DNA from: an uncultured Candidatus Saccharibacteria bacterium
Lineage (GTDB): Bacteria > Patescibacteriota > Minisyncoccia > UBA6257 > 2-01-FULL-56-20
Reading direction: 5' to 3'
Assembly: GCA_964387675.1 (NCBI GenBank)
Contig: CAYLWL010000001.1
Location: forward strand, 144,874 to 208,873
Length of the DNA: 64,000 nt
In this document: positions 39,001-45,000 of the stretch, one piece after another
How the letters are laid out: each line of letters opens with the position of its first letter
Position numbering within the stretch: the first letter of the stretch is position 1
Made by a program: the position numbers

Positions 39001-42000
39001 CACAAGGACGGGAACATCAACGAACTCATGGATTTTATCCGCAAACGTGGTTTTGAAGTCGTGCGCCCCACAACCGAGTTCGGAGAAATATTTTGCGTGA
39101 ACAAAGCAGTTAAGATTTAGGACCAGTTTTTATGAAACCGCTTATCTCGATCATCATCCCCGCCCATAACGCCGAGAAATACATTAAAGAGGCGGTTGAT
39201 TCCGCGCTCGTGCAGACCTACGAGAATGTGGAGGTGATTGTAGTTGACGACGGATCAACCGACGGCACGAAAAACGTTCTCGAGCCGTATGTGCGGGACG
39301 GCAAAATAAAGTACGTGTATCAGAAGAATACCGGGCTGGCCGGAGCGCGCAATGCGGGAATTCGAACCGCACGGGGCGAGTATATCGCGTTCCTCGACGC
39401 CGATGATTTGTTTTTGCCGGAGAAAGTGGCCGAGCAGGTTAAAGTCCTCGAGGAGAATCCCGATTATGGTGTTTGCTACTCCGATCTGACGCATTTCACC
39501 GATGGGCAGCAGAGGAAGTTTTTTCATCATCGCTACCACTATCCGTCCGGCAATCTTTTCGAGCTATTGCTCCACAAACAATTTATAAATCCGCTCACGG
39601 TTTTTGCGCGCCGTAGCGTTTTTGAAAAGTATGGAATGTTCGATGAGACCTTGCGACGTTCCGAGGATTGGGATCTGTGGTTGAGGTGGTCACACGCCGG
39701 CGTAAAGTTTTTCTATCTTGACAAGCCGCTTGCGTATTATCGCATCGCGAGCGGCGGAAACCTTTCTTCCGTTGAATCCGAGCCGGCAATGAAGGAGAAA
39801 AATTTTTTTATCTTTTCTCGCGTAGGCGAAAAGATGAGCAGAGAAGAATGGCAAAAATATAACCTCTCTGCAATTCTTGGAAAACTGCGGCTCAAAACCG
39901 TCTTTGCCCATCTTATGGTCGGCGACAAAAAATCAGCCAGGCGTTGGTCGGCAGAATCGCCATGGTACTGGCGCGGAGTTATCTCGATCGTCCCGGCCAC
40001 GGTATGGAAATTTATACTAGGACTTGCGAGGCGCGCGAAACATCGCCTTCTGCTAAAAAAGATGTAGAATTTTAGAATAGAGAACCTAGGGCACGCAAGA
40101 TATAAAAACAAAAACAAGAAGCAGTCTTTCGGGGATGGTACTATGATATATCATAGTACCGAGAAATTATCATGAAAAAAGAAAAAGTTCTCATTACGGG
40201 CGGGGCGGGGTTTATCGGCAGCCACACCGCCGATGCTCTTGCTAGGAAAGGATTCAAAATAAGGATTTTGGATAATCTTGAAAACGTTGTCCACGGAGGC
40301 CGGTGGCCTAAATATGTTTTGGGCAAGGGCTACGAGCTTATTCGCGGCGACGTGCGGAAAAAGTCCGATTGGGCTAAGGCGCTCAAGGGAGTTTCTTTTG
40401 TGTATCACCTTGCCGCGTACCAGGATCAGCGGCCGGATTTCCATAAATTTTTCGAGGTGAATACCGTGGGCACTGCGCTTCTTTACGAATTGATCGTAGA
40501 AAGAAGATCGCCGATTAAAAAAGTGGTTATCGCCAGTTCCCAGTTTGTGTATGGGGACGGAAAATATCAATGTCCGCACAATAAAAGTTTTTTCTATCCG
40601 GAGCTTCGGACACTCGAAGAATTCAAACACAAACGATTCGACATTCTCTGCTCCCACGGAAAGCCAGCCAGATTTATTTCTTTCAAAGAAGACCACATTC
40701 CCAATCCAACTAACTCCTACGGCTTGTCCAAGTGGGCTATGGAGAGCTTGTCTTTGAAATTAGGAAAAACTTACGGAATTCCTACCACGATTTTGCGCTA
40801 CTCCGTGGTGCAGGGCGTGCGCCAGTCGCCAAAAAACTTGTACTCCGGGGCGTTGCGGATTTTCGTAACACAATCCTTAAGGGGAAAACCAATCACCGTT
40901 TTTGAAGACGGCAAGCAACTGCGTGATTTTGTGAGCGTTAAAGACGTGGTGGCGGCAAATCTCAAAGTTTTAGAAAACAGAAAATCAGATCCCCAAATTT
41001 TTAACGTCGGCGGCGGCCACGCATGGAGCGTTTTGCGCTTCGCCGAATTGGTGAAGAAAATTACCGGCTCAAAATCCAGGATTAAAATCGGGGGCTTCCG
41101 CCGCACCGATACGCGCCACGCTGTGTCAGATATTTCTAAATTAAAAAAGCTCGGTTGGCGGCCGCGATTTTCTCCGTTGGATTCGGTGAGGGAGTATTTG
41201 CGGTGGTATAAGGAGAATTCTCGATGAATCGTATATACCTCGACTATGCCGCCTCGACGCCGGTTGACCGCCGGGTGCTTGAGGCGATGACACCGTACTT
41301 TTCCGAAAAGTTCGGTAACCCCGGATCGCTACATTCTTTTGGGCAAGAAGCGATTGCGGCGGTGGACGAATCGCGCGAAAAGATTACGAAATCCATCGGC
41401 GCGGATTTTAGGGAAATAATTTTTACCGGCTCGGCGACGGAGGCCAACAACACCGCATTGCGCGGTGTTGTTGGGAGTGTCAAGTGTCAAGTGTCAAGTG
41501 TCAAGGACAAATCGCCGAGAATAATTGTTTCCTCCATAGAACACGAATCCGTCCTCGAAACCGCGCGAGATTTAGAGAAAGACGGCGTGGAAGTGGTTTA
41601 TCTGCCGGTTGACCGCAACGGCGTTGTTAATCTCAAAAAAATTGAGGAATCTTTAAACGACTGCACCGTTTTGGTTTCCGTGATGTACGCGAATAACGAA
41701 ATTGGAACGATACAGCCGATCTCTAAAATTTCTGAGATAATCAGAAATTTTAGAGAGAAATTAGAAACGAGAAACGAGAAATTAGGAGTCGGATCGTCCT
41801 CATCTCTCATCTCTCATCTCTCGCATCCTCTACTTCACACCGATGCCGCCCAGGCATTCCAGTTCCTTGACTGCGACGTAAACAAACTCGGCGTGGACTT
41901 GATGACGTTGTCTGCGCACAAGATCTACGGCCCGAAAGGAGTGGGCGCACTTTACGTGCGCCAGAAATTAGAAATTAGAAACGAGAAATTAGGAATCGGA

Positions 42001-45000
42001 TCGTCCTCATCTCTCATCTCTCATATCTCATCTCTTACCTCTGGCGGCGGCCAGGAATTCGGTCTCCGTTCCGGAACCGAAAACGTCCCGTCGATCGTTG
42101 GGTTCGCAAAAGCCGTGGAACTCGTCTCTAATTCGCGCGAATTAGAGAATAAGAGAATCGCTGGCTTGAGAGATTACTTCTGGCAAGAACTAAAAAAGAT
42201 TTGCGCGGATGCGGAAGTGAATGGTTCTTGTGGATCAAGAGCTGGCTACATATCACCTACTACTTACTACCTACCCAATATACTGAATGTTTATTTCCCC
42301 AACTATTTAGCCGATGAGCTTCTCACAAAATTTAATCTCGCGGGGCTTGCGGTTTCTTCCGGGTCGGCGTGCCGTTCACGGGCAGTAGAATCTTCTTATG
42401 TCATTGGAGCGCTGGGGTACGACAAAGAACGCGCGAAAAACAGCATCCGTTTCAGTTTCGGCAGGCCAACCACGAAAGAGGAACTTGACAGGGCATTGGA
42501 AATTATTAGGATGAAATTAAAATAAATGAAGAGTAAAAAGTTTTTCAAAAGGCCTCCGTTTCTTGCTTTTGCCCTCATTGTTTTGGGCGCCGTCGTTTTG
42601 GGCGTTACTTTCGGCGCGCCTCCCGCGCAGGCCAACTTCTTGGAAAACTTTTTCAAGGATTACGTTTCTCCGCTTCTCAAAAATCCTCAAGGGGCAAGGC
42701 CTTCCGGCGGACCCGCGTCTTCAACGGTTGAACAGCAGACAAAGAGCAACGTGCCGCTCTATAAGCCAGTCATCGATTATGAAAACGCTGTCGTAGCGGC
42801 GGTGAAGAAGGCGTCGCCCGCCGTTGTTTCTATCACGATTTCCAAAAATGTCCCGGTGCTCGAAAATTGTCCGTACGGTCCTTTTTCGGGTTTGCCTCCG
42901 GAATTCAGGCAGTTTTTTGGAGAAGACATTCCTGGATTCAGCGTTCCGTGCGATACGGGCAAAACCCAACTCAAAGAAGTCGGCGGCGGCAGTGGCTTCG
43001 TGATCTCTTCGGACGGTTTGATTTTGACGAACAAACACGTGGCCGGCGACAAGAAGGCATCGTACACGGTTTTCACGAATGACGGCAAAAAATACGACGC
43101 GAAGATTCTGGCTATTGACCCCGCGCAGGACTTGGCGGTGATAAAGATCTCGGCGAGCGGCTTATCTACGATTGAATTAGGGGACTCTGACGCACTGGAG
43201 CTTGGCCAAACCGCCATTGCCATCGGCAACGCGCTTGCGGAGTTCCGGAACACGGTTTCGGTGGGCGTGATCTCGGGCTTGTCGAGAACGGTGACCGCCT
43301 TTGGTTCCACGGTCGGTTCGGAGACCATTCAAGACGTGATCCAAACTGACGCGGCGATTAATCCGGGAAATTCCGGCGGCCCTTTGCTGAACTTGAAAGG
43401 CCAGGTGATCGGCATCAACACCGCTGTCGCGCAAGGCGCGCAAAGCATCGGTTTCGCGATTCCCATAAATCGGGCGAAGAAGGATATCGCTTCGGTGAAG
43501 GCGGGCGGAGAAATCACGGTGCCGTTTTTGGGCGTGAGATATATAACCGTGACTCCGGACATCGCGAAAGCGCAAAAACTTCCGATTGAGTACGGCGCTC
43601 TGGTGCGCGGCTCGAACGATGGCGCGGCGGTGGCTCCCGGCTCGCCCGCGGAGAAAGCCGGCGTTCTTGCGGAAGACATCATTATGGAAGTAAACGGCAA
43701 AAAAATTGACAAAGATCATCTTTTGGGAACTTTGATTGCCGACCACGCGGTGGGGGACACCATTACTCTTAAAATCAATCGCAACGGAAATGAAATCACC
43801 CTGAATGTGACTTTGGCTCAGAGGTCAAGCGATTAGTGGATCAATATTTTTTCTTTTCCATTATAGCATAATATTATGCTATAATAGAAAAGTTTGCGTT
43901 TACTTTTTGTCGTGTTATAATGTGTACGGCACCTAGAGTAAGCTAGCGTGGCCGGAAAGGATGTGTACCATGGACCATGGTAGCACAACGACAGCGGCGA
44001 ACGGCACGGCGGCGGCGGACGGCGCGGCGGCGAGTGCGATTCCGGAGTCCCAGAGGTACAAGACGTGCCCGCACGGGCACTGCCACAACCACTCACCGGA
44101 GTGGGAAGAACGGGGCAGGGAACTGCGTCCTGAGCGGAGCTTCTTAGGATCCACACATTTTCTCTTCGATTGGCATTGCGGCCGACGAATGAAAAGGATG
44201 CGCTGGCACTTCTTGAAACGCTGCAAGTTGTGCGGGCGGAGCGAGCGGTGGCAGATCGGGCGGCTCACCTGCCTCTGCGAATGCTGTGGTTACAAATATC
44301 AAAACTGAGGAGGTGATTGAGTAGCGTGCCGAGTTCCGGGAGAAGCAACGCCTCCCGGAACTCAGCCCCATAATTTTTTGCTATAATTAAAAGTGCAAAG
44401 CTGAATTCAAATGTCAAATACCAAAAATCAAAATGAAAATGTAAAATATTAGAAATAGCTTTTGTTAATTCCGATTTACCATTTTCCATTTTGATATTTG
44501 CATTTTGCATTATCTATCATGCCAAACTTTCATCGTTTCACCGTAAAGGCCCAAGAGGCGCTGCAGAGTGCGCAGGAACTTGCCGCGCGAAAAAACCACG
44601 GCGAGCTGAAGCCGTTGCACCTTCTCGCGTCTCTTCTCGAAGACGGTCAGTCCCTGGTGATTCCGGTTTTGACCCGGGCCGGAGTCAATATCCAAAAACT
44701 CGGCGAGCAAGTCGAGTTCGAACTCGACCGCACGCCGAAAATCGTCGGCGGCGGAGTGGTGGGCCAGCTGTATCTATCGCAGGAGCTTATGCGCGTCTTG
44801 GATCAAGCGGCAAAAGTCGCCGCTCAACAAAAAGACGAGTTCGTTTCGTGCGAACACTTATTACTCGCGCTTCTTGACACACAATCCGCCGCGAAAGCAA
44901 TTTTGGAACAATTCGGTTTGAGGCGGGATGTTGCCTTCAGAACGCTCGCCCAGCTTCGCGGCTCGGTTCGGATTACCGACGAAACGCCCGAGAGTAAATT

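Follow-up and report, generated by a model that had tools for sequence, protein, structure and literature searches.

In-frame heptanucleotide repeat arrays in the cysteine desulfurase gene of a bacterium from the candidate phyla radiation

The gene for the cysteine desulfurase IscS in a genome of an uncultured Candidatus Saccharibacteria bacterium (assembly GCA_964387675.1, contig CAYLWL010000001.1, positions 144,874 to 208,873; these 64,000 nucleotides are called the window in the following and all positions refer to them) carries four extra segments, each of which is built from tandem repeats of seven nucleotides. We regard it as fairly probable that these segments are translated insertions derived from heptanucleotide tandem arrays that occur throughout the lineage, and that they represent tolerated, selectively filtered repeat DNA and not a regulator. 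Such arrays usually come in pairs of opposite orientation that make up an imperfect palindrome of 70–110 bp, and in Parcubacteria they appear at gene junctions and, in frame, in permissive protein loops.

The open reading frame (ORF) that hosts the insertions (41224–42525, plus strand) encodes a protein of 433 amino acids. Using phmmer against the PDB, E. coli IscS (PDB 1p3w) was matched over residues 4–431 with E = 2.6e-82, and the ORF matches Pfam PF00266 (Aminotran_5) with E = 5e-69. In an alignment of 26 homologues the lysine binding pyridoxal phosphate (PLP), K233 in SAHKIYGPKG, and the catalytic cysteine, C383 in SSGSAC, are invariant, as are the PLP contacts H107, D207 and Q210, which align to the E. 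coli motifs. Judged from its sequence by fold and by these residues, the ORF is an intact group I (IscS/NifS-type) cysteine desulfurase; structure match, Pfam and invariant residues agree here with a preliminary description of the window, which had seen a housekeeping-type enzyme keeping its PLP lysine and catalytic cysteine. The codon for this cysteine lies downstream of all four inserts. The same protein is found in two assemblies and is 100% identical to one annotated from Candidatus Liptonbacteria (Parcubacteria, candidate phyla radiation (CPR)). In the window iscS overlaps the upstream epimerase gene by 4 nt (ATGA, 41224–41227).

Compared to E. coli IscS the product shows four alignment gaps of 7, 24, 15 and 10 amino acids (sites 1–4), and all four inserts consist of period-7 tandem arrays which keep the frame and are free of stop codons. 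Site 1 (41476–41505, plus strand) is a solo array of 30 nt, (AGTGTCA)x4.3, which was detected by Tandem Repeats Finder (TRF) with period 7 and 100% matches, fills the 7-amino-acid gap and encodes SVKCQVSSVK. Site 2 (41752–41829, plus strand; 24-amino-acid gap) is an inverted pair of heptamer arrays, found by TRF and as a member of the direct-repeat family D1, with a left arm of AGAAATT/AGAAACG units, the loop GGATCG and a right arm (CTCATCT)x3.4; it encodes REKLETRNEKLGVGSSSSLISHLSHP. A second copy of this element, identified from direct repeat D1 and inverted repeat I1, occupies site 3 (41959–42046, plus strand; 15-amino-acid gap) and encodes RQKLEIRNEKLGIGSSSSLISHISSLTSG. Its arms, the sole arm pair measured, are 34 nt long and 74% complementary, and its closing stem CGCCAGA/TCTGGCG extends into the conserved GGGQ codons. 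The two elements share a direct repeat of 67 nt (41756–41822 and 41963–42029) with 94% identity at a distance of 207 nt, and a core of 25 nt that contains the loop was found at sites 2 and 3 but nowhere else in the window, with zero occurrences expected. Their peptides are RNEKLGVGSSSSLISHLS and RNEKLGIGSSSSLISHIS, and LGVGSSSSLISHLSHPLLHTDAAQAFQFLDCDVNK is a predicted peptide across an insert junction. Site 4 (42248–42274, plus strand; 10-amino-acid gap) is a degenerate ACCTACT array, reported by TRF with period 7 at 42255–42274 and encoding YISPTTYYLP. The preliminary description had listed three extra segments, namely a (gtgtcaa)x4 array and two near-identical elements of about 75–80 bp that add RNEKLG-type peptides in frame. 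All three are present at the positions it gave, with these repeats and these translations, and the fourth at 42248–42274 has to be added to its count.

In an AlphaFold2 model all four inserts fall between secondary-structure elements and sites 2–4 overlap segments with a predicted local distance difference test score (pLDDT) below 50. The model is mediocre (26-sequence alignment, mean pLDDT 63) and was used solely for placing the inserts. Alignment to canonical IscS likewise shows the segments to be lineage-specific insertions in loops of an intact enzyme.

The inserts are by no means restricted to this genome. We collected the 120 best homologues, which have a length of 383–513 amino acids and, as far as a source name is given, come from Parcubacteria/Patescibacteria. 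Among them, inserts of at least 8 amino acids are present at site 1 in 56, at site 2 in 70, at site 3 in 78 and at site 4 in 45 sequences. The insert peptides show a lag-7 self-identity of 0.141 versus 0.060 in the protein core, a periodicity that follows from the DNA repeat since three units of 7 nt make seven codons. Seven genes were read at the DNA level, that of the window and those of six loci from relatives (L004 and L085–L089), and their inserts are again heptamer arrays, mostly inverted pairs, with a unit specific to each genome; the AGAAATT unit is also present in other genomes, and heptamer-array inserts also turned up in metagenome loci. As a control, a metagenome scan with the IscS alignment gave mostly distant insert-free iscS genes, and 61 of the 68 short insert-free IscS genes had no such array. 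Twin copies within one gene are found in the window (sites 2 and 3), in L004 (sites 1 and 3) and in L085 (sites 2 and 3). Regarding further arrays in these relatives, the iscS gene of L086 carries about ten GGGTCAN units in frame (gene positions 1106–1174), and L085 has (CCTGACA/CATGACA)x10 at 15171–15239, upstream of an NTP-transferase gene.

That the same four loops are filled in roughly 40–65% of the 120 homologues could indicate an adaptive role, in which the loops would provide IscS with new surface features, for example for partner binding in CPR bacteria with their reduced iron-sulfur machinery. The stability of the inserts within a Wolfebacteria population also fits this idea: 13 iscS variants with at least 99% identity from many samples (P0093–P0117) differ only in point substitutions and in the called start, and no indels or length polymorphism were found in their inserts. 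Nevertheless, the insert sequences are unrelated among genomes and track the local DNA repeat unit, the homologues P0014, P0021, P0030 and P0108, which lack inserts, resemble the query no less than those with inserts do, three of the sites overlap stretches predicted with pLDDT below 50, and the site-4 insert shared by the window and L004 differs by three non-synonymous and one synonymous change. We therefore regard an adaptive role as improbable. The Wolfebacteria variants also bear on the idea of a contingency locus, in which gain or loss of 7-nt units would shift the frame of iscS and switch the gene on and off. Perfect arrays of 4.3 units inside an ORF are indeed classic substrates for slippage, but iscS is a housekeeping gene, the identical protein occurs in two assemblies, the 13 near-identical variants are free of length variation and all 120 homologues are full-length, so that we give this reading hardly any weight.

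A comparison with L004, the closest relative, shows how the inserts differ between two otherwise very similar genes, as this locus is syntenic with the window and has 87% DNA identity outside the inserts. (An extra ORF of 98 amino acids without a Pfam match is located there between the epimerase gene and iscS, on the minus strand at 2831–3127.) At site 1 the solo (AGTGTCA)x4.3 of the window stands opposite a 108-nt inverted-array element in L004; at site 2 the full element of the window stands opposite only (CATGTCA)x2.4; and at site 3, where the window again has the full element, L004 has a different one, which is the twin of its own site 1. Only at site 4 do both carry the same array, ACCTACT in the window and ACCTACY with 4.1 copies in L004. 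In L089, whose protein is 64% identical, the left arm of site 3 is the same as in the window (CGCCAGAAATTAGAAAT.AGAAAC.AGAAA), and as right arm it has a perfect array of (TCCAATT)x4.3. The site-3 insert is thus probably old, even if convergence could also have produced the common unit and frame, and its unit evolves in concert within the arrays. The simplest explanation for the site-2 copy of the window is that it was recently derived from site 3 by conversion or duplication. Perfect arrays of 30 nt at site 3 are TCCAATT in L089 (10864–10893) and AAGTCAA in L018 (gene positions 821–850), and this length recurs.

To take up the folding of the two elements, the preliminary description had concluded from the complementary arrays that each forms a hairpin. 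For the antisense RNA this is correct, as the site-2 element reaches −38.5 kcal/mol (z −5.5 compared to shuffles) and the site-3 element −39.5 kcal/mol (z −5.1), with 22 and 29 Watson–Crick pairs plus 6 and 5 G·U pairs, respectively. The sense RNA does not share this property (site 2, −19.0 kcal/mol, z −0.3; site 3, −25.7 kcal/mol, z −1.8), and as single-stranded DNA the genic copies fold no better than shuffles on either strand, the only exception being the minus strand of copy 2 with a marginal z of −2.3. An intergenic relative of the element, described below, behaves differently: the stretch 4735–4825 folds in both RNA orientations (sense −28.4 kcal/mol, z −5.1; antisense −31.1 kcal/mol, z −4.9), and 4741–4821 as single-stranded DNA folds on both strands (z −5.1/−4.3). 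Each of the 11 stem positions in the genic copies of the window that deviate from Watson–Crick pairing reads A·C in the sense and G·U in the antisense orientation, and in all 11 hairpin-type inserts from six genes the antisense fold is the stronger one.

This asymmetry can be traced to coding. If the right arm is swapped for the exact complement of the left arm, an in-frame TAA or, in the other frames, a peptide rich in Phe and Leu results. For the right arm, the exact complement has a TGA in each of the frames. The intergenic 4741–4821 retains ATGAG and TAATTTC units, which would be stop codons if in frame; the genic copies have ATTAG precisely where TGA would be in frame, and TCATCTC replaces TAATTTC. 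A translated palindrome has to avoid stop codons and hydrophobic peptides, and these coding constraints are sufficient to account for the difference between the strands.

A functional RNA or DNA structure has nevertheless to be considered, be it an antisense RNA, a terminator of antisense transcription, an RNase III site or an mRNA structure that tunes iscS. The strong antisense folds, in which G·U is the sole non-canonical pair, the common polarity of all 11 inserts and a perfect 16-bp mRNA hairpin immediately upstream of the site-2 element would speak for it. However, the elements show no significant structure on their sense strand, the avoidance of stop codons and hydrophobicity predicts the asymmetry fully, insert-free homologues are interspersed among insert-bearing ones and no Rfam family was matched: a scan of the window at gathering thresholds gave no hit, and only chance-level matches (E 0.16–0.64) were seen in 41100–42700. 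A functional structure is therefore an unlikely explanation in our eyes. As the sense strand lacks significant structure and coding constraints suffice, regulation of expression by mRNA structure of the two elements, which the preliminary description had offered as an option, is not supported.

That stop units have been replaced precisely at the positions where they would be read in frame is a further argument for translation of the inserts. One might otherwise think that they are missing from the protein, either excised from the mRNA or skipped by the ribosome in the manner of introns or mitochondrial translational-bypass elements. The hairpins adjoining the inserts do resemble features of bypass sites, and CPR rRNA genes are known to carry removable insertions. 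However, every insert is in frame and stop-free and the stop units of the intergenic relative have been exchanged in the genic copies, and since such constraints would be needless for sequence that is removed or bypassed, this scenario has very little probability. An intein, intron or translational bypass was rejected for the same frame and stop constraints, which favour translation. Two other candidates were discarded as well, an assembly artefact, because the same architecture occurs in many independent assemblies and lineages, and a CRISPR-like or diversity-generating system, because neither a spacer nor a template architecture is present.

In addition to the arrays, iscS contains perfect palindromes. 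A census of perfect inverted repeats with arms of at least 11 nt and loops of up to 12 nt gave nine in the window versus 0–1 in shuffles, and three of the nine lie inside iscS. The first (41444–41474; 13 bp, loop 5) adjoins the 5' edge of site 1 and covers the conserved EANN-ALRG codons, with Thr77 at a position where at least 90% of the homologues have Leu; L004 has a different perfect palindrome in its place. That homologues in general conserve a hairpin upstream of site 1 was ruled out, as only the window and L004 have one. The second (41720–41756; 16 bp, loop 5) adjoins and overlaps the 5' edge of the site-2 element, forms a perfect stem on both strands and hence in the mRNA just upstream of this element, and is not found in L004; here the conserved IRNFRE, read in antisense, gives ISKISE. 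The third is a perfect 24-nt palindrome (TCTCTAATTCGC/GCGAATTAGAGA, 42125–42148) within the SNSRELE codons, which resembles the AGAAATT units in sequence and is identical in L004 and preserved as a palindrome with another centre in L085. The palindromes 41444–41474 and 41720–41756 override residues that are conserved in relatives, a pattern that would fit the template-switch 'correction' of quasi-palindromes. The other six perfect palindromes or hairpins of the window, with arms of 12–16 nt (13174–13207, 17961–17990, 40137–40160, 43860–43885, 44331–44363 and 53406–53439), are not built from heptamers and could be terminators or operators; five are intergenic or at junctions and one lies 13 nt within the called start of ORF 53394–56669.

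The heptamer arrays of iscS are part of a wider phenomenon in the window. With a fixed criterion we counted 21 period-7 arrays versus 1.45 in codon-block shuffles, an excess of about 14-fold, while periods 4, 5, 8, 10 and 11 were at expectation and periods 6, 9 and 12 were modestly raised with at most eight arrays. Perfect period-7 arrays usually have a length of about 30 nt or 4.3 units according to TRF, and the units seen are AGTGTCA, GGAGTCA, AGAAATT/AGAAACG, CTCATCT, ACCTACT and CTTGACN. The majority of the arrays are located at junctions of co-directional genes, where they overlap the upstream stop and/or the downstream start (235–300, 1637–1677, 4740–4821, 8641–8704, 21037–21082, 23878–23911, 29898–29948, 47822–47849 and 48631–48769), and many of these are inverted pairs that fold as hairpins. 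Further arrays are found upstream of clpB (44397–44520) and downstream of ORF 60301–62640 (62693–62767).

A second gene with in-frame arrays encodes a sugar 3-C-methyltransferase (ORF 14482–15750). It contains (GGAGTCA)x4.3 at 14575–14608 (plus strand), which encodes DGSQESGVRSQ and falls at a 4-amino-acid gap compared to PDB 4rv9, and 690 nt downstream, in direct orientation, the twin (GAGTCAG)x4.3 at 15264–15304 (plus strand) in a loop region beside a 6-amino-acid gap. Both show 100% matches in TRF and take up loop positions relative to 4rv9.

Two of the junction arrays belong to the same family as the elements at sites 2 and 3. The intergenic member at 4741–4821 (plus strand) lies between a glycosyltransferase and a methyltransferase gene, supplies the TGA stop of ORF 3713–4753 and can be aligned to the genic copies in both arms, the TCTTACC end included, whereas its loop differs from theirs; the preliminary description had rightly assigned it, as 4741–4817, to the same element family. 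The other is a half copy of one arm at a gene junction (23878–23911, minus strand), with ATTTCTC units on the plus strand, whose reverse complement aligns to the left arm. As both align with the genic arms a dispersed family exists, with three full copies and one half copy in the 64 kb and identities of roughly three-quarters to 94%. The earlier view that the segments of iscS are repeat-derived, lineage-specific insertions tolerated in frame is supported, together with this intergenic occurrence and their position in loops.

Dispersed copies at unrelated loci (both iscS sites, 4741–4821 and the half copy) raise the question of a classical non-autonomous transposon similar to MITEs (miniature transposable elements with inverted repeats) or REPINs, whose transposase would be encoded elsewhere and whose insertions would survive in loops when in frame and stop-free. 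The overall inverted-repeat architecture and the occurrence of the AGAAATT unit in other genomes would also suit such an origin, and the import of pre-formed DNA would sidestep the frameshifts of stepwise growth. However, no target-site duplication was seen flanking 41752–41829, 41959–42046 or 4741–4821. Neither transposase, integrase, reverse-transcriptase nor RAYT domains were detected in the 46 window proteins (Pfam, E ≤ 1e-3 to 1e-6), and the precomputed Pfam annotation of locus L002, a 21-kb piece of the NCBI assembly that matches the window, lists no transposase-like domains. The elements have no distinct conserved ends, as each is an imperfect palindrome as a whole and the TCTTACC end is common to two copies only. 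Unit and loop are particular to each locus, and a loop is shared only by the two intragenic copies. A search with the element peptides (54-amino-acid concatenation) in a database of 5.8 billion protein clusters gave three word-sharing candidates, none with E ≤ 10, which is weak evidence for their absence from other proteins; the core AGGARTCGGATCGTCCTCATC gave one chance match, to a Nitrospira metagenome-assembled genome, in a genome-contig collection that does not include the genome studied here. Moreover, the site-3 insert is orthologous between proteins of 64% identity, and solo arrays and within-gene twins recur. Together with the low copy number in the 64 kb these results speak against the MITE-like nature that had been proposed for the segments, and a transposon of this type appears rather unlikely to us.

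How tolerated repeat DNA could give rise to the observed arrangement may be outlined as follows. Replication slippage on the 7-nt unit would generate the arrays and keep them homogeneous, fold-back or template-switch copying would yield the inverted partners as well as the adjoining perfect palindromes, and short-patch conversion or duplication would spread copies to nearby sites, here most likely with site 3 as donor and site 2 as recipient. Within an ORF selection would retain those versions whose length is a multiple of three and which are stop-free and not too hydrophobic, and it would favour T-to-C changes on the sense strand, by which pairing in the mRNA is destroyed and G·U pairs are left only in the antisense strand. 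We infer that IscS gains nothing from the inserts, which would represent slowly turning-over repeat DNA that enlarges surface loops.

Several points weigh against this explanation. Slippage in steps of 7 nt would frameshift an essential gene. Arrays within genes must therefore originate or change 21 nt at a time, or else pre-formed DNA has to be imported, and a mobile element would account for this equally well. Homologous copies 37 kb apart (4741–4821 and iscS) and the AGAAATT unit in other genomes imply a mechanism of dispersal. The model explains neither the period of 7 nor the perfect arrays of about 30 nt nor why iscS is a hotspot, the copy counts of the 67-nt element cover 64 kb of this genome only, and the supposed neutrality is deduced from the hypervariability of the sequences.

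It is also possible, and this we put forward as a tentative alternative, that Parcubacteria and probably other CPR bacteria contain a so far undescribed clade-wide type of palindromes made of heptanucleotide arrays. A process dedicated to them or peculiar to the lineage would write and maintain these palindromes, such as a recombinase or, where repair is poor, replication with template switching. They would systematically expand the same surface loops in housekeeping proteins and also gene junctions, and their antisense hairpins might be functional. A full-text literature search, limited in coverage, yielded no account of heptamer repeats or of palindromic repeats in Parcubacteria, Patescibacteria or CPR. 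If this alternative is true, a major unrecognised source of lineage-specific protein insertions and gene-boundary sequences in reduced genomes would have been found.

The arrays could offer a DNA-level origin for many of the lineage-specific protein insertions in CPR bacteria, which complicate annotation, alignment, phylogeny and structure prediction, and the concept of 'selfish DNA inside protein-coding genes', known from Rickettsia, would also apply to a bacterial radiation that is very large and very different. They represent a natural experiment on how avoidance of stop codons and hydrophobicity reshapes translated palindromes, and a tractable system for two long-open questions, the preference for 7-nt repeats in some bacteria and the concerted evolution of arrays. 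If the inserts are merely tolerated repeat DNA, they also call for caution, as strong antisense hairpins in ORFs can be by-products of coding constraints.

The remainder of the window is mostly filled by a large cluster for sugar modification and glycosyltransferases. It contains three paralogous C-methyltransferase genes, at 11577–12782 (minus strand), 14482–15750 (plus strand) and 21966–23120 (plus strand), all with Methyltransf_14 and Methyltransf_23 and two also with Methyltransf_13 domains. Three tandem paralogous giant ORFs (49885–60264) encode proteins of 1158, 1091 and 1181 amino acids with PG_binding_1 and in two cases also fn3 domains, and identical 29-nt stretches at 54068 and 57324 reflect this paralogy.

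Compared to known systems, the analogy to RUP, Correia and ERIC elements drawn in the preliminary description is the less apt one, as Rickettsia palindromic elements (RPE) come closer in their in-frame behaviour and cyanobacterial and Beggiatoa heptanucleotide arrays in their composition. Bacterial MITEs (Correia, ERIC, RUP, BOX) and REPINs are short non-coding inverted repeats, which lie mainly between genes and are at times joined in frame to ORFs (PMC10969869, PMC3116915). The traits that define these families, namely target-site duplications, conserved terminal repeats, a large number of copies and a matching transposase or RAYT, were not seen in the 64-kb window. Quasi-palindrome mutagenesis by template switching (the Ripley model, with studies in E. 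coli) perfects imperfect inverted repeats by copying one arm. The perfect palindromes 41444–41474 and 41720–41756 match this model, which describes a mutational mechanism and not an element family and which may have operated here.

By behaviour, RPE seem to be the closest case. They are palindromic repeats of about 100–150 bp which occur in frame in unrelated metabolic genes and are translated, and they are considered compatible with the structure and function of the proteins (PMC10969869). Like them, the repeat-derived peptides of iscS are in frame in loops of an intact enzyme. However, RPE are grouped in families of many copies that share a conserved peptide, whereas the units described here are specific to locus and genome and have a low copy number in the 64 kb, their arms are tandem heptamers, the host belongs to the CPR and the same four sites are filled across the whole class. 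From the heptamer composition and the CPR host, it is unlikely that the elements of the window belong to the RPE family by sequence.

By composition, the closest analogues appear to be the heptanucleotide repeats of cyanobacteria and Beggiatoaceae, known as short tandemly repeated repetitive sequences (STRR), TAACTGA repeats or 'long simple sequence repeats' (LSSR). They comprise 2–6 or more copies of 7 nt, a period strongly preferred over others, are mainly intergenic and often located just upstream of starts or overlapping the upstream stop, sometimes lie within ORFs at a peripheral position of the protein primary structure, and differ between strains by 7-nt steps, for which polymerase slippage was proposed (PMC4679880). 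According to the title of Vioque 1997, cited in PMC2858038, STRR are also present in the gene for RNase P RNA. The period-7 arrays of the window are over-represented like those of the STRR/LSSR type (21 versus 1.45), and its junction arrays are placed like the TAACTGA repeats of Beggiatoaceae. The STRR units are CCCCAGT, TTGGTCA and CAACAGT, and the units of the window match neither these nor TAACTGA. In contrast to STRR, the arrays described here are typically paired with a complementary array into palindromes, and they are found in Patescibacteria, in frame and at recurrent sites in central loops of housekeeping enzymes.

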